Origin: Naegleria gruberi
Taxonomy: Eukaryota
Direction: 5' to 3' (one strand)
Assembly (NCBI GenBank): GCA_000004985.1
Contig: GG738893.1
Length of the DNA: 64,000 nt
The notes under the pieces are model-generated. The model made no database searches and was not told the DNA's origin. It saw nothing but the letters and a program-made list of their open reading frames with translations. Positions 32,190 to 52,961 of this stretch are shown here, piece by piece; the stretch's first letter is position 1; each line of letters starts with the position of its first letter. The translations under genes were made by a program, and so were the position numbers.

Positions 32190-34622
32190 TTATTCAAAGA
32201 CAACATCTTTGGAGATGAGCTCAAACATTGGATCAACACATCTAAGGGTAACAGATTGGTTGGTGAGTAAAGAAACTGCTGGATAAAGAACGCCTGTGAT
32301 ATTTCTAAAGCATTCACCAATGCATTTACCATTCAGATACCAAGAGAGGGTTGCACCAATATTATTCTTTGGATCGACAGCATCTTCAAAAGCTTTCAAG
32401 TAGTACTTGACACGAGCCTTGACAATATCTCCCTCATTGAATGGAACGTTATTCCACTGTACGACAGGGTCACATGTGAAGGCTTGCTTATGTTTGAGAT
32501 GAGTATTGGAATAAAAGTGTAAATTATCACCATTTCCGCCTGCATATCCAAAACCTCCATGTCTATCATATCCTACAAGATTGGTTGGTGTGGATTCCTT
32601 GTAAGGGAAGGTTTCGGTTTCCAATCCAATTACAATCCACCAACCATTAGCGTTAGTCTTGTCGAATTTTTCAATCTTAATTTCCACTTCTAAAATTGCA
32701 ACATCATCAGTGATAATATCCACATCTCCATTTTCAAGATCCAATGGTGAAATGAGAGGAAGTGTCATGTATCCATTCTTTCTCTTTTCAATTTCTGTTG
32801 GAATTCTGATTGGAAGGTTAGTTCTCACAGTTTGCCAATGATATGTAATATTATCCTCTCTGTAGACAGTGGCATTGTTATTCTTGAACTTGATATTGTT
32901 ACCTCTTTCACATGTATCCCAACACAATTTCAAGGCCCAATTAATAAAGAATCTATAATAGGTCTTCCATGACTTGTAATAACATGGTGGTTTTTCACAA
33001 ACAGTCATGAATCGTTTTTTAATCTCGTTAAGAGGAGTCTGAGAAAAGAATCTTGGACACTTGTCTAATGATTTAGAATTAGTAACATTTTGATATTTTC
33101 TCTTGACATAGTAGCTGTATACGTTCATACAAATCTCTTTCCAAAGCATTTCATTCTTTGCGAATTCTCTTTCAAATTCTTTACAAACCAATCCAATACC
33201 CAAAGCTAATTCCTTGTGAGTTAGGAATGAGAAAATTTGATAGTACAATTCTGGAATTAGTCTGATAACTTGTTTCTTTGTTCTTGGAGGAGTGCTAGTG
33301 TAGTGAGATGGGGAAGCAAAATGTATTGGATTACCTGCAAATGGTAATGAATCAACCATAGTAGTAACTTGATAAGAATGTGGTCTATGTACAGAAACAA
33401 TTTGGGAGCGAGGTGTTCTAATGATTGGAGAAGAAGTGTTGGAAAATTTGTTATTGTTACTCTTTTTGGTTGGAGTGAGAATAGTTTCAGTATTATTGCC
33501 AACTGGTTGTACAGATTCATTGGCCAATTCAATATTTGATCTCTCCAAAGATGCTAATGATGAAGCAACTGGTTGTTGTGGAGGACCAACGAGAATTTCT
33601 TCTGCATTCTTTTGAACTTTCTGATTGAGAATTGTTCTAGATGGAATTGCAGTGGCAGGAGGGGTATAGACTTGGTAGGCTCGTTGTTGAGAAGAATCAA
33701 TATTACTCAAAATAACTCTCTCAATGCTAATAGGTGGTCTGAATGGTTCGTTCGGTGGAACGAAGCAAAATGTATCATTATTGACAATTTGATCAATGCC
33801 ATCTACTTCTGTTCCTCTTAATGAAATTAATTTTGGCAAAATGTCAGAATTATCACTTCTTCCAATATCATTGAAAGGAGTGTATCTAAACTTGGAGCAA
33901 ACCATCATTATTAAATCTTCAAAAGAAGTACCAGTTGGATCGAAGGAAACAATCTTTCCATGTTGCAAACTACCATTAGGAAAGATGTGAATCCTCATCA
34001 TTGGTCTCGAGTACAAGGAAGGATAGTGGTTTTGTTCTATACTGGCATGTTCCATGAAACCATCTCTCTTTGCTGCATAAATTGGTTGTCCTGTGGTCAT
34101 ATTTGCAGCAACAGTGTGAGAGGATGACATGAATGGATGTTGCACATATTGATAGTGTTGATGATCATGATGAGATCTGTGATGTTGTTGAAGAAATTCA
34201 AAATCATCCTCATTTTGTTCATACATATCATATTGATCGGAGCATGATGGTTCTGCTAATTGTTGTTGTGATGAATAATTATTAAAGGAAAAGTTTTCAT
34301 ACAAATGTTGTGAAGATGAGTCGGAATATGTATGATCATCTTCCACAGAATTATTACTACTATTGTATCTGACAACGTTATCGAGTGAGGATTTTTTAAT
34401 CATATTGTTATTATTATTAATAGTTTCTTGAATGTCGGTATTGGAGTTGCTATTCGAATTACAACTCATACTTGATAGAGGCGGAGAGGATGAAAGGTTA
34501 GAATAGGAATTCACTTCTCCGAAATATGTATTAGAAATGGATTGAAATTGTTGTTGCTGTTGTCTGGTTAGATGATGAAGGGAGGAGAAATAGTGATTGT
34601 TAGCAGCAGCAGAATGAGACAT
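32190..34622 (-). CDS. F-box / SPRY (B30.2) domain protein (FBXO45/FSN-1-like architecture), 810 aa with N/Q-rich N-terminus
   Basis: F-box at ...VIRLIPELYYQIFSFLTHKELALGIGLVCKEFEREFAKNEMLWKEIC.... C-terminal SPRY features are ...NGWWIVIGLETETFPYKES...GYDRHGGFGYAGGNGDNLHFYSN.... Confidence 0.65.
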   Translation of the reverse strand: MSHSAAANNHYFSSLHHLTRQQQQQFQSISNTYFGEVNSYSNLSSSPPLSSMSCNSNSNSNTDIQETINNNNNMIKKSSLDNVVRYNSSNNSVEDDHTYSDSSSQHLYENFSFNNYSSQQQLAEPSCSDQYDMYEQNEDDFEFLQQHHRSHHDHQHYQYVQHPFMSSSHTVAANMTTGQPIYAAKRDGFMEHASIEQNHYPSLYSRPMMRIHIFPNGSLQHGKIVSFDPTGTSFEDLIMMVCSKFRYTPFNDIGRSDNSDILPKLISLRGTEVDGIDQIVNNDTFCFVPPNEPFRPPISIERVILSNIDSSQQRAYQVYTPPATAIPSRTILNQKVQKNAEEILVGPPQQPVASSLASLERSNIELANESVQPVGNNTETILTPTKKSNNNKFSNTSSPIIRTPRSQIVSVHRPHSYQVTTMVDSLPFAGNPIHFASPSHYTSTPPRTKKQVIRLIPELYYQIFSFLTHKELALGIGLVCKEFEREFAKNEMLWKEICMNVYSYYVKRKYQNVTNSKSLDKCPRFFSQTPLNEIKKRFMTVCEKPPCYYKSWKTYYRFFINWALKLCWDTCERGNNIKFKNNNATVYREDNITYHWQTVRTNLPIRIPTEIEKRKNGYMTLPLISPLDLENGDVDIITDDVAILEVEIKIEKFDKTNANGWWIVIGLETETFPYKESTPTNLVGYDRHGGFGYAGGNGDNLHFYSNTHLKHKQAFTCDPVVQWNNVPFNEGDIVKARVKYYLKAFEDAVDPKNNIGATLSWYLNGKCIGECFRNITGVLYPAVSLLTNQSVTLRCVDPMFELISKDVVFE

Positions 34623-40515: not shown

Positions 40516-42775
40516 TTGTTGAGATCAGGATCAGGTTTATCGAGCCAATACGAAAGATATAATTTGAGTATTAATGGATTCTTTATTTTGATTGATTGTA
40601 CTGAAGAAATTGGAGGTTCAGATACTGGAATTCGTATCATTCAACAAAAACATGACAATTTTGGACCAAATTATAAGAATTACAAGTTTGGAAATAAGGA
40701 GACTGAGAATGCAATTTTAAAAGGTTTATCATCTACCAGAAATTTAATCAAATCCAATTTACCACCTAAACAACTTGAAGAACAATTGAAAAAACTTGAA
40801 CAATTGTTTAGAAAGGACATTTTGACAAGAGAAGAATTTGAATCTAAATGGAAAATGGTTTACAATCCAGCAAATAGTGGATCAGAAATGACCTATGCCA
40901 CCACTTCTAATAATCAACAAACTAATACACAGAGTAGTGGCAATATGGATGGCCTCACACAAGATCAATTAGATTTACTTTCCAAGTTGAGAGGGTAAGT
41001 ATTGTGAAATTCACTTTCTAAATTGTAACATTTGTAATAGATTGATTGGAAGAGGCATTATCACACAGGAAGAGTACAATGCCAAGCTCAATAAGCTGAA
41101 AGAAGAAAATCAAAAATCCTCCCCTCCAAAACAACCATCTCTTACTCCAGAACAGAAGCAAATGATTGAAAAATTGGAAAGCCTTTTATCAAAGGGAATT
41201 CTCACACAGGAAGAATTCGAAATGAAAAAGAAACAAATTGTTGGAAATAATTCTCAAATCAGCAGCTCTACATCTGGTCAGAAATCTCCAACTGCAGTAG
41301 AAACAATTTCATTTGAAAAGTATGCACAACAATATGAAGATTTAAAGTGCATGATGAATGAATCTCAAAAACACCAAATGAGAACTCTTGAAAGATTTGT
41401 CAACGATGGAATAATTACACAAGACGAATATGAAATGAAAAAGAAAAAAGTTTTGGGAAATCTTTACACTCCAACAAATTGGATTTATCAAAAGCAACTT
41501 TCTGAAAGAGAACAAACCAGTAGCTCTCCATCTTCTCCTTCTACTCCTTCCTCTACAGAATCTCTATCCGAAAGTCAAAAAGAAAGAATTGAAAAATTGA
41601 AAATATCAAAGGAGAAGGGAATTTTAACCAATGAAATGTTCGAATCGAGAATGCAACAAATTTTGGATGAAAACAAGCCAGTTCAAGACACTGAAGATTA
41701 TTCACATCTCACCTCTGATCAACAAAATTATATTGCCAAACTGAAATATTTCAAAAAGATGGGAATTCTTACACCATCCGAATTTGACATTCAAATGGAA
41801 AAAATCATTTCAGACCCTGATAGTGTCAAGACCGGTGCTCTAGTTTCTTCACCTCAAACACCTACAAGTAGTTCATCAAATTCCTCTCCAAAAACCCCAA
41901 CAGACTCCAAGCCATCCACTCCAACCATTATTTCTAACAAGTCAAGTAAGCCATCTACTCCTACTCCTGTCTTTACTTCAGAAGAAGTGGAAACTCCAGT
42001 CACTCCAACTGATAGCTCTCAAAAGAATCAACAAACCAATACAGTTCCAAAATTGGAAGAAAAGAAGCCAACCACACCAGTACCTATCGTTGAAACCAAG
42101 AAAAAACCATCTTCAGAAAAGATTGTTAAGGAAAGTCCAAAAGAAACAACTCCTAAACAATCATCAACACCAATCAGTAGTGGTGCAGAGCAAGATGAAG
42201 AAATTCAAGATCAACTGGAAAGACTCAGATCACTTGTCGATATGGGAATCATCTCAGAGGAAGATTACAAACAAAAGGAAGAAAAGCTCTTGAAGGGAAC
42301 ACCAACCCCTGCATCTCCAGCTGCTACACCAGAAGAATCCAAACCTGTAGTCAATCAACAAGCAACCAATAATCAAGTCAAACAATTGGAAAAGCTCTAC
42401 AATTCTGGAATTATTTCAAAGGAAGATTTTGAGCAAAAAGTCAACAAAATTCTTGGAAAACCTCAAAATGAGACAACCACCACAAAGGTTGAAAGTCCAT
42501 CCTCTCCAAGAAACACCTCAAATGTCAAAGATCAAAATGTTAAAGTAGAATTGGCCAAATTGAAGAAACTTTTGGAGAATGGAATCATTGCACAAGAACA
42601 ATTCGAAATGAAACAATCTAAATTATTGGGCACTTCTCCATCAAGTACCACCACTGAAACTGAATTATCATCAGAACAAGAGGAGCAAATTGCCAAATTG
42701 AAATCCTTCCTTGATGAGGGTCTCATAGATCAGGACGATTATCAAGAAGAGTTGAATAAAATCTTGAATAAATAA
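40516..42775 (+). CDS. Protein with 10 tandem SHOCT-like (~30-aa) repeats separated by S/T/P linkers; join(..40994,41041..42775); possible extra 5' exons at 40196..40320 and ~40368..40471
   Basis: Repeat units include IEKLESLLSKGILTQEEFEMKKKQIVG, LERFVNDGIITQDEYEMKKKKVLG, LERLRSLVDMGIISEEDYKQKEEKLL, LEKLYNSGIISKEDFEQKVNKILG, LKKLLENGIIAQEQFEMKQSKLLG and LKSFLDEGLIDQDDYQEELNKILNK*. A 46-nt intron (GTAAGT at 40995 ... TAATAG ending 41040) joins ORFs 40516..40998 and 41042..42775. Upstream ORF 40196..40384 can be spliced in frame through two ~47-nt GT..AG introns. That 5' structure is tentative. Confidence 0.5.
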
Positions 42776-42895: not shown

Positions 42896-44181
42896 TTGAA
42901 CTTTTTGTTCAAACCAAAAAAAATGGCTCCACATGCAACTTTATTCTCATCACTTCCCTATGAAATATTCCAACATATTTTATCGTTTGGAGCTGATAGC
43001 GAATTGAAAAATCCATCAAGTAGAAATTCAGATATCCGAATGGTTGCCAAATTTCAATCAATTAATAAGAAAATTTCGAATATGAAGGAAATGCAAGATT
43101 ATTTCAATGCCTTTTGGTGGAAAGTATTCGAAAAGAATTTTGGAATTGGTCAATTATTTGGAAATGATTTGGAGAAACTTCGATTACGAATGATTAAACG
43201 AGACGAAATGAAGAGGAAAATTTTATTAGCAAGTTATATCAAATTTAAACTTTACAAACGACCAAAATATGATCCTAATGCACAACAACAACAAGAGGAA
43301 GTTAAAATAATAGTGCTTGGGGAAGGAGGAGTGGGTGAGTAATAATAATTCTATTATTCGATTCTAATAGAATTTTATTATGGACCTATTTATTTCACAT
43401 TTACCATAATTATGAAAATAAGGAAAATCTGCAATAACCATTTTCTTTATTCAGCATATTTTTATTACTGAATACGATCCGACAATTGAGGATACATACA
43501 GAAAGTATTTTAGGGTTGATGAAGAGCCAGCCATGGTAGAAATTCTCGATACTGCAGGTGAGTTTTTGTAATGTTTGGCAATAATTATGATTAACTAATT
43601 TTGATGATAACTATTAGGACCTGAGGAGTTTTCTAGTAAGTAAATTTAATTAGAAACTCGACTAATATTATGTTAGCATGGAGAGGTAAGAGATTTTATT
43701 TGGGATTGTAATATAATTCAATTAATAATACCTCTTAATAGATCAATATATGAGAGTTGGAGATGCATTTGTAATTGTATGTTCTTCAAGTGATGAAAAC
43801 TCTGTATCAGATATGCGTAGACACGTAGAGAACATGTTACGTTGCAAAGATGTTGAAGTTAATGATAGGCCTGTGGTGTTTGTTTTAAACAAGATGGATT
43901 TATTGGTTAGTGCCAATAGAAATGAAACAATTGATCGTTTTAGACAAGAAGTTAATTCAATTGTTTCAGATAATTCATTATTGAACTATTCCATTATTGA
44001 ATGTAGCGCCAAAAATGGAGAAAACATCGATGCCATATTTGAGGAAACTGTTAGAAAGCAAAGACTTGGTGGAATTGATAATCTTACTTTATTGAAAGGA
44101 TGCATTGAACAAGACATCTCATACATTGAGGAATGTAAAAAGAGGGTACAAGTCAAAAAGAAGAAATGCTCAATAATGTAA
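42896..44181 (+). CDS. Ras-family small GTPase (CAAX: CSIM) with ~140-aa N-terminal F-box-like extension; 5 exons join(42896..43334,43423..43557,43618..43635,43677..43685,43742..44181)
   Basis: Spliced core reads ...[11 protein letters not shown]|[45 protein letters not shown]|GPEEFS|TWR|[17 protein letters not shown]...[10 protein letters not shown]...[12 protein letters not shown]...KKKKCSIM*. It has G1, DTAG, NKMD, SAK and CAAX motifs. Introns are 88, 60, 41 and 56 nt with GTGAGT/GTAAGT donors, and there is a 9-nt micro-exon. The N-terminal extension contains [12 protein letters not shown] (F-box-like). Confidence 0.65.
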
Positions 44182-44245: not shown

Positions 44246-44364
44246 TGGCTACGGCCATATCACGATGAATGCACCTCATCCCGTCCGATTTGAGAAGTTA
44301 AGCATCGTCGAGCCACATCAGTACTGAGGTTGGAGACAACTTGGGAACCTGTGGCGCTGTAGTC
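44246..44364 (+). rRNA. 5S ribosomal RNA gene (~119 nt) followed by TTTT Pol III terminator
   Basis: GGCTACGGCCATATCACGATGAATGCACCTCATCCCGTCCGATTTGAGAAGTTAAGCATCGTCGAGCCACATCAGTACTGAGGTTGGAGACAACTTGGGAACCTGTGGCGCTGTAGTC + TTTT. The 5' TACGGCCATA, central CCGATCTG/AAGTTAAGC-type loops and 3' GTTGGAGACAAC..GGGAAC..GCTGTA segment match eukaryotic, Dictyostelium-like 5S. It lies in a GC-rich island of an AT-rich spacer. Coordinates are +-2. Confidence 0.8.
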
Positions 44365-44372
44365 TTTTGCTC

Positions 44373-45931: not shown

Positions 45932-47317
45932 TTATGAAAAACTGGTTGGATTAAATGATCCTTTTCTTTCAAGGTAATTAGCTGCCTTATTCAAGTGAGA
46001 CATTATTTCAGAATGGCTATCCTTATCTTTGGCAAATGAGGGATTGTTCTTGAAGAGAGTTCCGTAGTAATATATTTGAATGGCATCAGCATATCGATGA
46101 ATAGATCCACAATCTTCTGCTGGGCAACAGTTTTCACCATCTTCAACTGTAATAGTTTGATCATTTGAATCCTCAATATTTTCAACTGTGATTTTGTGTC
46201 TGAATGAATCTCCCAAATCATACATGTAAAACATTTCATCTCCAGTCTAATTACATTGTAGTAAAAAGTAAAAAACACATACCTTTTCAAGTAAATGGAA
46301 TAGTTCAACCTTTGTATCATCTGCAGTGTAAATGTTGTGACTAAACTCGTGCATTTTGTCTACAGCTTGACTGTAAATTGGACCAAATACTAGGTCTGGT
46401 TGTGGCATTCTTTGATTTTTAGAGTCTTTCTTTTCGAATGGGATTTTTCTAAAATAGTAGGCATGATAGTTTCGGCACCATCCAAGAACAGGTGAAATAA
46501 CACGATCTTGCAAACTTTGTAGAGTAATAGAACCAGGTAATTTGACTCTTCTCCAAATGTGTGGTCTAAAGTTCAAAACTTGAATTCTCAACTGGTACAT
46601 TTTGCTTCTGAGATGAGTATTTGGTGAGGCAGTGACTTTCTCCACGAGTTCGTCTGCCTTCCTTTCCAGAACGTCCATTCCACCACTGAACATTAAATTT
46701 TGTCTTGCAAACATGAGCTGTTGAACCTGTTCAATACTCAATTCACTCTGATCTTCTCCTTCCACATAATCATCAACTGAACAGAAAATAGATTCCAAAC
46801 ATTTAGCAATTTGGTTGTGAATTTCACCTTTTTGTGCTTTGGAAATTTCTCCAATATCCAATGCAGATTTTAGTGTCTGCACAACAATTTCTCTAATATT
46901 CTTGATTAATTCTCTTTCCTGCTTATCATCAAACACCTTGTCGTGATCACCCAATTTTGCAAAACTAACAAAAGCTTCACCATACAAAACATATCCAGGA
47001 GCAAAACTTGGTTGATTAATAACACATTCTTGTCCACTATTCAGGGCTTTCAATATAGCCAACCTCTTTTCTTCCTTCTCCGAGAGTTGATCAGCCCTTA
47101 TCAATGAAGCCTTGCATCTAGCTTCAAGCAGGAAGGCAAGGTCATCCTTGCTGATGGCAGAATACTTTTCTACATTGCTGTTGGAAAATACCTCATCTAA
47201 CAAAGCTAGCAGGGAATCAACTTGTTCTGGTTTATCCAGTAGAGAAAGTACCTCCTTCTTCTTTTCCAATACATCGGATGAACTTTGTGGTTTGATCGTA
47301 ACTTTGTATTTGGACAT
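45932..47317 (-). CDS. PRiA4_ORF3-like (IWRR-motif) domain protein; 2 exons complement(join(45932..~46246,~46282..47317))
   Basis: ATG at 47317. Core reads ...MYQLRIQVLNFRPHIWRRVKLPGSITLQSLQDRVISPVLGWCRNYHAYYFRK...ELFHLLEK|TGDEMFYMYDLGDSFRHKITVENIED.... This matches the pRiA4b ORF-3-like domain (YxLRV.L.d..P.IWRR..VP...TL..LH..iq.amGW...HLh.F ... YDFGD.W.H.I.lE). A 35-nt GTATGT..AATTAG intron joins the two ORF-track frames. Confidence 0.55.
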
Positions 47318-47939: not shown

Positions 47940-48219
47940 ATTTACCAATCAAAAAAAAAACAAGAACAACAAATGACCAAGAAGAAAACAGGAATCATGA
48001 CCAACAACGCACCACCATCATCATCACAAATCAAACAACAAGTGCAAGACACAAAAAACCAAACAAGCCTCCTCAAAAAGCAACTCGACTCTATCGTACA
48101 ACAATATGAACAACAATTGGCAAATTTGGAAAAGTTAGAAACTGCCTTGAATGAGAAGGATGAACAAGTCAAAAGTAGAGAAATTCAAGTCGCTCAAAGG
48201 GAACAATCTGTAAAAGATA
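47940..48219 (+). repeat. Segmental duplicate copy 1 (pairs with 52440..52723)
   Basis: Around 250-280 nt are >90% identical between the two sites, including poly-A and the CAAGAACAA...ATGACCAAGAAGAAAACAGGAATCATGACCAACAACGCACC stretch. Both copies are immediately followed by N-runs. Confidence 0.7.
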
Positions 48220-49367
48220 NNNNNNNNNNNNNNNNNNNNNNNNNNNNNNNNNNNNNNNNNNNNNNNNNNNNNNNNNNNNNNNNNNNNNNNNNNNNNNNNN
48301 NNNNNNNNNNNNNNNNNNNNNNNNNNNNNNNNNNNNNNNNNNNNNNNNNNNNNNNNNNNNNNNNNNNNNNNNNNNNNNNNNNNNNNNNNNNNNNNNNNNN
48401 NNNNNNNNNNNNNNNNNNNNNNNNNNNNNNNNNNNNNNNNNNNNNNNNNNNNNNNNNNNNNNNNNNNNNNNNNNNNNNNNNNNNNNNNNNNNNNNNNNNN
48501 NNNNNNNNNNNNNNNNNNNNNNNNNNNNNNNNNNNNNNNNNNNNNNNNNNNNNNNNNNNNNNNNNNNNNNNNNNNNNNNNNNNNNNNNNNNNNNNNNNNN
48601 NNNNNNNNNNNNNNNNNNNNNNNNNNNNNNNNNNNNNNNNNNNNNNNNNNNNNNNNNNNNNNNNNNNNNNNNNNNNNNNNNNNNNNNNNNNNNNNNNNNN
48701 NNNNNNNNNNNNNNNNNNNNNNNNNNNNNNNNNNNNNNNNNNNNNNNNNNNNNNNNNNNNNNNNNNNNNNNNNNNNNNNNNNNNNNNNNNNNNNNNNNNN
48801 NNNNNNNNNNNNNNNNNNNNNNNNNNNNNNNNNNNNNNNNNNNNNNNNNNNNNNNNNNNNNNNNNNNNNNNNNNNNNNNNNNNNNNNNNNNNNNNNNNNN
48901 NNNNNNNNNNNNNNNNNNNNNNNNNNNNNNNNNNNNNNNNNNNNNNNNNNNNNNNNNNNNNNNNNNNNNNNNNNNNNNNNNNNNNNNNNNNNNNNNNNNN
49001 NNNNNNNNNNNNNNNNNNNNNNNNNNNNNNNNNNNNNNNNNNNNNNNNNNNNNNNNNNNNNNNNNNNNNNNNNNNNNNNNNNNNNNNNNNNNNNNNNNNN
49101 NNNNNNNNNNNNNNNNNNNNNNNNNNNNNNNNNNNNNNNNNNNNNACTAAGAAAACAAACACTTCTGATTTGAATTCAAATGTTTTAGGAACAAAATCAA
49201 ATCATTTCAAAGTTAAACTCATATCTAATTGTAATAGTTTAATGATTGGATTTGCACCTAAAAGTATTAATGTGAACGAAACAAATAATAATACAAAATG
49301 TGGATATTATTTATATACTACTACTGGAACCATTTATTCTCAGAATGGAGAATCAAACAAAAGCTAA
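47973..49367 (+). CDS. Coiled-coil / SPRY(B30.2)-like protein gene interrupted by assembly gap (5' part 47973..48219, 3' part 49146..49367)
   Basis: 5' part: MTKKKTGIMTNNAPPSSSQIKQQVQDTKNQTSLLKKQLDSIVQQYEQQLANLEKLETALNEKDEQVKSREIQVAQREQSVKD (coiled coil) runs into the N-run. After the gap an open frame gives ...FKVKLISNCNSLMIGFAPKSINVNETNNNTKCGYYLYTTTGTIYSQNGESNKS* (SPRY-like). Whether both parts belong to one gene is an inference. Confidence 0.35.
   Translation: MTKKKTGIMTNNAPPSSSQIKQQVQDTKNQTSLLKKQLDSIVQQYEQQLANLEKLETALNEKDEQVKSREIQVAQREQSVKDXXXXXXXXXXXXXXXXXXXXXXXXXXXXXXXXXXXXXXXXXXXXXXXXXXXXXXXXXXXXXXXXXXXXXXXXXXXXXXXXXXXXXXXXXXXXXXXXXXXXXXXXXXXXXXXXXXXXXXXXXXXXXXXXXXXXXXXXXXXXXXXXXXXXXXXXXXXXXXXXXXXXXXXXXXXXXXXXXXXXXXXXXXXXXXXXXXXXXXXXXXXXXXXXXXXXXXXXXXXXXXXXXXXXXXXXXXXXXXXXXXXXXXXXXXXXXXXXXXXXXXXXXXXXXXXXXXXXXXXXXXXXXXXXXXXXXXXXXXXXXXXXXXXXXTKKTNTSDLNSNVLGTKSNHFKVKLISNCNSLMIGFAPKSINVNETNNNTKCGYYLYTTTGTIYSQNGESNKS
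48220..49145. other. Assembly gap (926 N)
   Basis: Run of n. Confidence 1.
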
Positions 49368-49479: not shown

Positions 49480-50973
49480 TTACAGGTCATAAATATCTAC
49501 ATGATCTGCTAAATTCATTTCTCGAATGTATTTTTCACCCTCATCGCTTATATTGTTGTCAACTGCGTTAAGTCTTGTTAATTGCTTCATTCCACTTAGG
49601 GCTTTAACGCCTTCGTCACCAATTTCATTGTAACCTATATCTAGAAAAGTTAATTGTTCCATTTCACTTATAAATTTGGCTCCCTCATCTCCAACAGCAT
49701 TGTGATAGATAGAAAGCTGTGCTAGGTGCTTCATTTCACTGATTTGGTTTGCACTTTTCTCTCCAATATTATTATGAGCAATTATTAGATACGTTAAATT
49801 ATCCATTTTACAGATATATTGTATACCTATTGGTGTAATATCAATACTAGAAACATTAAGTTCAGTTAATTGGTTCATTTCACTTATAGATTGGACTCCG
49901 TTATCCCTAATTCGATTATCAGAAATGTCAAGCTTAATTAAATTTTTCATTTGGCTAATGTGAATAGCCCCGTACGGTGTAATCAAATTTTCAGCTATAG
50001 AAAGATGAGTTAATTGATTAAATGATGAAATGTATTTTGTTCCATCCAATCCAATACAACAACTGTTCACATTAAGATCTGTTAATTGTTTCATTTCTCC
50101 AAAACACTTAACACCGTCATTAATAGAATTAAACCCAATATCGAGTTTCCGTATATTCATCATTTCACTAACATACTTGGCACCGTTCTCGCCTATATTA
50201 TTACTAGCAATATCAAGATTAGTTAATTGTTTCATTCCACTAATAAATTTGGCTCCTTCGTCACAAATATTGTTGCCAACAATTTTAAGACCAGTCAACT
50301 GTTTCATTTCACTAATAAATTTTGCTCCATCCATAGTAATTTCATTGGCACGGATATTAAGAAAAGTCAACTGTTCAAGGCCACTAATATACTTGGCTCC
50401 TTCTGGGCCAATATTATTATTAGCAATATGAAGTTGTTTCAATTGCTTCATTTCACCAATATACTTGGCTCCTTCTACACCAATATAATTACCCGTAATA
50501 AGAAGATAAGTTAGTGATTTCAATGATGGTAAATGTTTAGCAATATCAAATCCAAAATAACAGAAAGTCATATAAAGATCAGTCAATTGTTCCAATGAAC
50601 ATATATACTTGAATCCACTTGGATCAATCTTAGAATTAAATTCTATATTGAGTTTTTTCAATTCTTTCATCGAATCCAATATCTCACAATTAAATCCACC
50701 TTCATTCTCTATCACTCTTAGATTTGCAACATTTTCCAAAAACGGCAATTGACCAACCATTTCCAAATCACTACTACGTGTTATCGAGAGGTGTTTACAT
50801 GAATTTTTAATGACATGAAACCACTGTTTGGAAACCAATGCACACCTCTGTACAATAAATTTAAAATCATCGTGAAAAGATAAAATTTCAAAGAGTGAAT
50901 CGTCAGAGAATAGATTATTTTCTTGTATTTTCGAAAATGAAGAAGTGATGGAATGTTTTGGTTGTGTGATCAT
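49480..50973 (-). CDS. F-box / leucine-rich-repeat protein (RNI-like 24-aa LRRs x ~16), 497 aa
   Basis: N-terminal F-box ...LFEILSFHDDFKFIVQRCALVSKQWFHVI.... Then repeated units of the form KQLTxLxIxxNxIGDEGAKYISEM (for example MKQLKQLHIANNNIGPEGAKYISG, MKQLTGLKIVGNNICDEGAKFISG). ATG at 50973. Confidence 0.7.
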   Translation of the reverse strand: MITQPKHSITSSFSKIQENNLFSDDSLFEILSFHDDFKFIVQRCALVSKQWFHVIKNSCKHLSITRSSDLEMVGQLPFLENVANLRVIENEGGFNCEILDSMKELKKLNIEFNSKIDPSGFKYICSLEQLTDLYMTFCYFGFDIAKHLPSLKSLTYLLITGNYIGVEGAKYIGEMKQLKQLHIANNNIGPEGAKYISGLEQLTFLNIRANEITMDGAKFISEMKQLTGLKIVGNNICDEGAKFISGMKQLTNLDIASNNIGENGAKYVSEMMNIRKLDIGFNSINDGVKCFGEMKQLTDLNVNSCCIGLDGTKYISSFNQLTHLSIAENLITPYGAIHISQMKNLIKLDISDNRIRDNGVQSISEMNQLTELNVSSIDITPIGIQYICKMDNLTYLIIAHNNIGEKSANQISEMKHLAQLSIYHNAVGDEGAKFISEMEQLTFLDIGYNEIGDEGVKALSGMKQLTRLNAVDNNISDEGEKYIREMNLADHVDIYDL

Positions 50974-51419: not shown

Positions 51420-51469
51420 NNNNNNNNNNNNNNNNNNNNNNNNNNNNNNNNNNNNNNNNNNNNNNNNNN
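51420..51469. other. Assembly gap (50 N)
   Basis: Run of n. Confidence 1.
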
Positions 51470-52723: not shown

Positions 52724-52961
52724 NNNNNNNNNNNNNNNNNNNNNNNNNNNNNNNNNNNNNNNNNNNNNNNNNNNNNNNNNNNNNNNNNNNNNNNNNNNNN
52801 NNNNNNNNNNNNNNNNNNNNNNNNNNNNNNNNNNNNNNNNNNNNNNNNNNNNNNNNNNNNNNNNNNNNNNNNNNNNNNNNNNNNNNNNNNNNNNNNNNNN
52901 NNNNNNNNNNNNNNNNNNNNNNNNNNNNNNNNNNNNNNNNNNNNNNNNNNNNNNNNNNNNN
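52724..52961. other. Assembly gap (238 N)
   Basis: Run of n. Confidence 1.

Follow-up and report, generated by a model that had tools for sequence, protein, structure and literature searches.

A Naegleria gruberi Ras-family GTPase with a conserved helical N-terminal extension that may be a divergent F-box domain

In a 64-kb window of Naegleria gruberi DNA (64,000 nucleotides (nt) of contig GG738893.1, assembly GCA_000004985.1), we have examined a five-exon gene that, as judged from its sequence, is a functional gene for an atypical Ras GTPase composed of a helical N-terminal extension, a G-domain, and a helical tail ending in a polybasic stretch and a CaaX box. The N-terminal helical domain of about 115 amino acids (aa) opens with a motif resembling helix 1 of the F-box. 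The best explanation as a whole, to which we assign a probability of roughly 0.55, is that this protein is a Ras GTPase with a divergent F-box domain that would link it to the SCF (Skp1-Cul1-F-box) ubiquitin ligase. What is new is a subfamily of Ras proper whose conserved, probably F-box-derived N-terminal domain has been missed by standard annotation; the same subfamily combines a switch II region lacking Gln61 with a K-Ras4B-like anchor. The gain is incremental, as the gene, its exon structure, and the theme of F-box-GTPase fusions are already public.

The GTPase domain and C-terminal anchor

A first-pass annotation of the window, made by a model from the sequence and a list of its open reading frames (ORFs), described the product as a Ras-family GTPase with a CSIM CaaX box, and profile searches bear this out. 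Pfam Ras (PF00071) matches aa 128-297 with E=2e-32 and 112.4 bits, against a gathering cut-off of 21.6 bits, and the closest relatives of solved structure are M-Ras, Rap1, and K- and H-Ras (E of ~1e-34 to 1e-36), together with R-Ras. The G1 (GEGGVGKS), G3 (DTAG), G4 (NKMD), and G5 (CSAK) motifs and a switch I with a Thr35-type Thr are intact and align to M-Ras and Rap1b. Identity to M-Ras, Rap1, and K-Ras4B over the G-domain is 36-44%, and the core of switch I is near-identical to YDPTIEDSYRK. Several features set the protein apart from classical Ras: it has a 127-aa N-terminal domain, carries Pro in place of Gln61 and Glu in place of Ala11, has an insertion ahead of α4/β6, and possesses ~35 aa of additional conserved helical tail in front of the CaaX box.

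Pro184 stands where H-Ras has its catalytic Gln61, opposite the Gln of M-Ras DTAGQEEFS. Loss of Gln61 slows GTP hydrolysis, as is established in Ras biochemistry, and because Pro replaces this residue the protein is an atypical, probably hydrolysis-deficient member of the family. Relatives have Pro or Leu at the equivalent position, or more divergent sequence, and Gln is kept there in one N. gruberi paralogue of the published table of Naegleria GTPases considered below.

The conserved helical tail that follows the G-domain leads into KKKKCSIM directly before the stop codon. A polybasic stretch followed by CxxM constitutes a farnesyl membrane anchor of the K-Ras4B type, and a CaaX box in which X is Met predicts farnesylation; the protein shares this form of tail with K-Ras4B.

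A conserved N-terminal extension

The first-pass annotation also noted an N-terminal extension ahead of the P-loop, and a family alignment of relatives shows this extension to be real and conserved. An artefactual fusion of two genes was considered and ruled out, as the extension and the start of the P-loop occupy the same exon, making the fusion physical rather than a product of annotation. An exhaustive HMMER search with a seven-sequence profile of the extension against 1.84 billion representative proteins (E<=1e-3) retrieved a family of 23 representatives. From a word-indexed homologue search, the extension profile recovered just five proteins, and the exhaustive search was required to reveal the family. 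Retrieved members share the same block structure, consisting of LPxE[IL]xxxILxF, a variable insert, xQSLxxx, YFNEFWWxxF, and ELxxLKxxMIKKxxMKRxxLL, and, in members whose sequence extends further, a Ras-like G-domain follows, in many cases with KKCxxM at the end. Outside this gene, the extension is kept by relatives in both N. fowleri and N. lovaniensis, by environmental relatives, and by several paralogues within N. gruberi. Several more N. gruberi paralogues with the extension are found in the published table of Naegleria GTPases, all of them labeled just "Ras" (PMC8296547). Annotation by Pfam thresholds overlooks the extension of this Ras subfamily.

AlphaFold2 with a 23-sequence alignment of the extension gave a confident all-helical model (predicted local distance difference test score, pLDDT, 86.7; predicted template modeling score, pTM, 0.78) with helices at aa 13-23, 34-47, 49-53, 55-73, 77-92, and 96-112. 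This model supersedes an earlier run on aa 1-127 with eight sequences, which reached a pLDDT of 58.7 and whose Foldseek matches were designed helical bundles without meaning. With the 23-sequence model as query, Foldseek gave no PDB match at E<=0.001.

Evidence for and against an F-box

The first-pass annotation described the extension as F-box-like, and this holds for helix 1 and is in doubt beyond it. The helix-1 consensus of the F-box, LPxE[IL]xxxI[LF]xxL, is matched at aa 11-22, and Pfam F-box-like matches aa 8-22 of this protein with E=0.24. Across the family, F-box-like is the commonest non-GTPase Pfam match, occurring in 11 of the 23 members at E<=1 with a best E of 2.6e-4, all below threshold; in a first, smaller family set it was found in four of four members (best E=0.0067). 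The only non-GTPase Pfam families to recur in the extension family are F-box-like, F-box_4, F-box, and PRANC. In a strict scan of the window for LPxE[ILVM], three matches were found, and only the one in the Ras gene lies in a long ORF (156 codons), the others being in ORFs of 31 and 40 codons.

Profile-profile comparison with hhalign adds to this. The target comprised ten F-box sequences, of which only Skp2 was checked against the PDB; the rest were six further F-box sequences and three Naegleria sequences from this window or the published GTPase table. Against this target, the family alignment scored 37.8 with a probability of 93%, compared with a null of 8.9±1.7 and a maximum of 15.2 over 200 column shuffles. 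A deeper alignment scored 34.4 (91%) against a null of 8.4±2.0, with null maxima overall of 15-18. Helix 1 alone contributed 27.6 over 13 columns at 95% probability.

A number of results weigh against an F-box. No Pfam F-box model (PF00646, PF12937, or PF15966) reaches its gathering score in this protein, with F-box-like at 11.7 bits (cut-off 24.3) and F-box_4 at 12.9 bits (cut-off 32). Helix 1 accounts for the whole of the hhalign signal: compared with helices 2-3 of the F-box, the remainder of the extension reaches a score of 8.3, which is at the level of the null (7.6±1.5). The consensus of helices 2-3 (xxDLxxxxxVCKxWxxL...LW) is not matched in the extension, and only a gapped, low-confidence alignment places FWWKVF opposite SLWQTL. 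A search with the family profile against all PDB chain sequences gave two chance-level matches and no F-box protein, and the search of 1.84e9 proteins, with its 23 matches, evidently did not draw in ordinary F-box proteins, of which far more would be expected; the matches retrieved look like members of the extension family. The gene is also tabulated as plain "Ras" without an extra domain in the published survey (PMC8296547). These weak scores do not exclude homology, since genuine F-boxes are themselves only weakly alike: Skp2 matches Cdc4 with E=0.44 and FBXO31 with E=0.73.

In the leading alternative, the extension is no F-box but a helical domain specific to the lineage, and its LPxEIxxxIL motif either arose by convergence or is a vestige that has lost Skp1 binding. 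Such a domain would act on the GTPase itself, through autoinhibition, dimerization, or effector scaffolding, and would have no link to ubiquitination. This is what might be expected from the sub-threshold Pfam matches, from a likeness to F-boxes that ends after helix 1, and from profile searches that recovered no F-box protein, and the most conserved blocks of the family, YFNEFWW and MIKKxxMKR, are missing from the ten aligned F-box sequences. Set against it are a helix-1 match far beyond the shuffle null, the recurrence of F-box-like above every other non-GTPase Pfam family, and the presence of recognizable F-boxes at the same N-terminal position in other Naegleria GTPase families (PMC8296547). 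We regard this alternative as a substantial contender, although not the favored one. On the sequence comparisons, helix 1 supports an F-box-like label, for which support at the level of the fold is weak, and a divergent F-box appears to be the somewhat better account of the extension.

Proposed mechanism

If the extension is a divergent F-box, a mechanism can be proposed for the protein. The Cys of CSIM is predicted to be farnesylated, and together with KKKK it would keep the protein on a membrane, while loss of Gln61 would slow GTP hydrolysis and leave the protein mostly GTP-bound. The N-terminal domain would combine a divergent F-box with a helical linker, in the arrangement known from Cdc4 and Fbw7, and would dock Skp1 through the LPxEI helix. 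The effector-binding surface of Ras would thereby be placed in an SCF ubiquitin ligase at the membrane, with two possible consequences. Proteins that bind the GTP-loaded Ras domain may become ubiquitinated; or SCF-dependent turnover, in place of a GTPase-activating protein, may determine the level of the GTPase itself.

The most specific form of this proposal is that the Ras subfamily acts as a farnesylated, membrane-resident, GTP-locked SCF substrate receptor, in which the F-box docks Skp1-Cul1 and the effector surface recognizes substrates. We put this forward as a speculative model that is rather unlikely to be correct in full. If it were, proteins with Ras-binding domains would be ubiquitinated at the membrane, Ras signaling would feed directly into ubiquitin ligation, and F-box-GTPase fusions would be extended to the Ras family proper. 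Given a working F-box, the protein would provide a compact, 337-aa model for testing how a GTPase domain can serve as the substrate receptor of a ubiquitin ligase.

Comparison with known systems

In both Naegleria species, Herman et al. (2021, BMC Biol, PMC8296547 supplement) describe numerous novel domain architectures with a Ras-superfamily domain at their core. An F-box fused to Ras was considered atypical in the first-pass annotation; this is so for eukaryotes generally and not for Naegleria, in which no other extra domain occurs as often on GTPases of the Ras superfamily as the F-box; Rab, Rho, Ran, and Gα are named as carriers, and Ras is not (PMC8296547). "GTPase-dependent ubiquitination" has been proposed for these fusions, and some Rab-like subgroups have conserved N-terminal extensions in which an F-box is recognizable in some members only, one such subgroup also possessing a CaaX box (PMC8296547). 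The protein described here resembles these fusions in its genus, in the placement of an F-box or F-box-like segment directly before the G-domain, and, for the one Rab-like subgroup, in its CaaX box. It differs from them in being a Ras rather than a Rab, Rho, Ran, or Gα protein and in a putative F-box that has diverged too far to reach Pfam thresholds. Should the extension work as an F-box, Ras proper would join these four as Naegleria GTPases fused to an SCF adaptor, which would strengthen the idea of large-scale coupling between GTPase state and ubiquitination in the Naegleria lineage.

Other systems share parts of this arrangement. RhoBTB joins a GTPase to a BTB adaptor for Cul3; it lacks normal GTP hydrolysis and is controlled via its protein level. 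As proposed for the Naegleria protein, it couples a GTPase domain to a cullin-adaptor module (BTB for Cul3, where an F-box would act for Cul1), but it belongs to the Rho family, uses a different adaptor fold and cullin, and has the reverse order, with the GTPase N-terminal. RhoBTB also occurs in Naegleria (PMC8296547). In the Euglenozoa, a sister group, TbFRP is a FYVE-F-box-GTPase protein for which a link to turnover has been suggested and no N. gruberi orthologue was found (PMC3593210). Within Discoba, TbFRP thus represents a separate lineage in which an F-box precedes a small-GTPase domain, but it is targeted to membranes by binding phosphatidylinositol 3-phosphate and not by prenylation; Pfam searches found no FYVE match in the Naegleria Ras protein at E<=10. 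A membrane-anchored F-box protein is also known from Legionella pneumophila, whose farnesylated effector AnkB, composed of an F-box, ankyrin repeats, and a CaaX box, recruits Skp1 and SCF to the membrane (PMC4322725). AnkB is comparable in its anchorage through a farnesylated C-terminal CaaX box, and it differs in being a bacterial effector in which ankyrin repeats rather than a GTPase bind the substrate, with no homology beyond the F-box. Full-text literature searches on F-box-GTPase fusions elsewhere found nothing specific.

The 9-nt micro-exon of switch II

Three closely spaced introns interrupt switch II, which is assembled from an 18-nt and a 9-nt exon, as DTAG/PEEFS/TWR/DQYMR; both exons are needed to give a switch II of Ras length. 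This structure was proposed in the first-pass annotation and is well above chance expectation on several grounds. Between positions 43636 and 43741 there are just three in-frame AG...GT segments, and of these only CATGGAGAG has both consensus splice sites (ttag before it and gtaag after it) and Ras-like residues. A segment of the form AG-N9-GTAAG is expected ~0.004 times in that interval given intron base composition, the peptide not being considered. With TWR included, switch II aligns with M-Ras without a gap, TWR lying opposite AMR (ildtagPeefsTWRdqymr vs vldtagQeefsAMReqymr), and the 9-nt exon raises the Pfam Ras score by 10.6 bits, from 103.5 to 114.1 bits. Three residues are encoded at the TWR site in every relative examined. 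In an allelic or strain contig (L007, 98% identical), the 9-nt exon and both of its flanking splice sites are unchanged, while intron 4 contains a 5-nt deletion and one substitution, changes that are consistent with non-coding sequence. The comparative case for the exon is thus strong. The exon is no discovery, as the GenBank model XP_002673033.1 already contains both the 18-nt and the 9-nt exon. Full-text literature searches on Naegleria micro-exons found nothing specific.

XP_002668509.1, the 333-aa public model for the allelic copy, omits the 9-nt exon and reads EEFS-N-QYMR, so that two public models of the same gene disagree on it. The first-pass annotation had held that skipping this exon would break the reading frame; skipping in fact stays in frame, as it does in XP_002668509.1, and frame-breaking is thus inapplicable as a test. 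It might then be supposed that the exon is unused or only alternative and that the main product is a 334-aa form in which 43635 is joined to 43742, and it is true that 9-nt exons are difficult for the spliceosome to define. Skipping, however, would remove three switch II residues found in every relative, where they are carried within ordinary exons, would alter a conserved Asp, and would forfeit the gain in Ras score, and the exon has a consensus acceptor and donor unchanged in an allele whose following intron has an indel. We consider this reading improbable. As contig L007 carries the variants of the XP_002668509.1 allele and yet has the exon and splice sites unchanged, the omission is probably an annotation error, and XP_002668509.1 should include the exon.

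Intron positions in relatives and integrity of the gene

The positions of switch II introns vary within the family. The closest relatives in N. fowleri (L001, 3676-3807) and N. lovaniensis (L002, 3649-3775) also have a split switch II, with a 19-nt micro-exon that encodes (G)LEEYYA or (G)PEDYYA and lies between one intron of 50-51 nt and another of 57-63 nt. The first of these introns has the same site and phase as intron 2 of the N. gruberi gene; the second is one base off, so that the 3' boundaries of the 19-nt and 18-nt exons differ, which looks like intron sliding. No synteny with these genes was found, the neighboring genes being different, and we therefore call them closest relatives and not orthologues. 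In a contig of close paralogue type (L003), the region has one intron, which falls within the codon for Ala59, and switch II is unsplit; another relative (L006) has one intron there, after EEYS. The position of intron 1 is common to L003 and L006. Intron 4, to which the 9-nt exon owes its existence, occurs in this gene and in the allelic contig and in none of the five related loci whose exon structure was examined (L001, L002, L003, L005, and L006). In L005, an environmental relative, there is an apparent in-frame TAA at ~880-900, soon after switch II (…GTGAATGATAAATATTAATTG…), which reflects either a pseudogene or a further unrecognized intron.

The two N. gruberi alleles differ by eight synonymous and four non-synonymous changes, and the ratio of non-synonymous to synonymous polymorphism (pN/pS) of ~0.12 indicates a gene under purifying selection. 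That the gene is instead a decaying paralogue or pseudogene in a birth-and-death Ras expansion, its Q61P and A11E replacements and many introns marking lost constraint, is very improbable: although pseudogenes occur in Naegleria Ras and Rab-like expansions (PMC8296547), the catalytic Gln is absent, and L005 has its apparent stop, the 337-codon ORF is intact over five exons with canonical splice sites, the nucleotide-binding motifs are all intact, pN/pS is low, and Pro or Leu at position 61, being shared by several family members, is a conserved trait rather than decay.

Gene model and genomic setting

The spliced protein is identical at 337 of 337 residues to XP_002673033.1/EFC40289.1 ("ras family small GTPase", Naegleria gruberi NEG-M), and the window, which has 33% G+C, is on this basis N. 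gruberi nuclear DNA; the gene itself and its exon structure are already public. The coding sequence extends from 42923 to 44181 on the plus strand, giving a 1014-nt ORF of 337 codons plus stop, and its four introns (88, 60, 41, and 56 nt) are all GT...AG and all in phase 1 (Table 1). The first-pass annotation had placed the start at 42896, where the ORF of the first exon (42896-43342) opens with TTG; the first ATG is at 42923. Its description of a first exon of ~140 aa with an LPxEIxxxIL-type motif ahead of the P-loop agrees with our model, in which this exon encodes 137 aa with the motif at aa 11-22.

Table 1. Features of the Ras-family GTPase gene, with positions in the 64-kb window
Feature	Position	Strand	Description
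Exon 1	42923-43334 (412 nt)	+	Met1 to first base of Gly138; whole N-terminal extension and first half of P-loop; 137 aa
N-terminal extension, aa 1-127	42923-43303	+	All-helical domain, from AlphaFold2 model and family alignment
F-box helix-1-like motif, aa 11-22	42953-42988	+	Pfam F-box-like at aa 8-22, E=0.24; hhalign helix 1
Intron 1	43335-43422 (88 nt)	+	GT-AG, phase 1; interrupts P-loop Gly138 codon
Exon 2	43423-43557 (135 nt)	+	(G)KS, switch I, through DTA(G)
Intron 2	43558-43617 (60 nt)	+	GT-AG, phase 1; within Gly codon of DTAG
Exon 3, 18-nt micro-exon	43618-43635	+	(G)PEEFS(T); CCT at 43620-43622 is Pro184
Intron 3	43636-43676 (41 nt)	+	GTAAGT...TTAG, phase 1; identical in allele L007
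Exon 4, 9-nt micro-exon CATGGAGAG	43677-43685	+	(T)WR(D) of switch II
Intron 4	43686-43741 (56 nt)	+	GTAAGA...ATAG, phase 1
Exon 5	43742-44181 (440 nt)	+	DQYMR..., NKMD (G4), CSAK (G5), conserved helical tail; stop TAA at 44179-44181
Polybasic KKKK and CaaX box CSIM	44155-44166 and 44167-44178	+	Read from sequence; (K)KKCxxM ending also in relatives

Neighboring genes and other features of the window

Several other F-box genes had been reported near the Ras gene, a claim that is upheld for one ORF at most. An 810-aa ORF at 32190-34622 on the minus strand has an F-box-like match at aa 457-499 that falls near threshold (22.2 bits, cut-off 24.3), together with a C-terminal SPRY domain, a layout resembling that of an FBXO45-like or SPSB-like substrate receptor. 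The leucine-rich repeat ORF at 49480-50973 (minus strand) appears F-box-like at its N-terminus by eye and is undetected by Pfam. The intervening genes are unrelated, encoding an old-yellow-enzyme (OYE)-type reductase, a phosphatidylinositol-specific phospholipase C (PI-PLC), and a SHOCT-repeat protein. With one neighbor near the Pfam threshold and unrelated genes between, a functional F-box gene cluster was rejected.

A complete 5S ribosomal RNA gene (Rfam RF00001, 103 bits, E=1.8e-21) lies at 44247-44365 on the plus strand, 65 nt past the stop codon of the Ras gene and on the same strand, and is found at the same position in the allelic contig. The upstream neighbor of the Ras gene, at 41042-42775 on the plus strand, is a 577-aa, low-complexity ORF rich in Ser, Thr, and Pro with at least seven SHOCT repeats (PF09851, E=8e-46) of the motif GIITQEEYxxKKxKLL. 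SHOCT is a mainly bacterial short C-terminal domain, and a eukaryotic protein with multiple SHOCT repeats is therefore unusual. An ORF at 40516-40998 (plus strand), with one SHOCT match, may represent an upstream exon of this SHOCT-repeat gene.

A 356-aa ORF at 46247-47317 on the minus strand matches PRiA4_ORF3 (PF07929, E=9e-11), a family named for a bacterial plasmid ORF, and could reflect lateral transfer or a widely spread domain. Runs of N that mark assembly gaps are present at 48220-49145, 51420-51469, and 52724-52961. The ORFs starting at 47973 and 52331 have near-identical coiled-coil N-termini (MTKKKTGIMTNNAPPSSSQIKQQVQ[DE]TKNQTSLLKKQLDSIVQQYEQQLANLEKLETA) and each runs into a gap, and the pair looks like a tandem duplication not resolved by the assembly.

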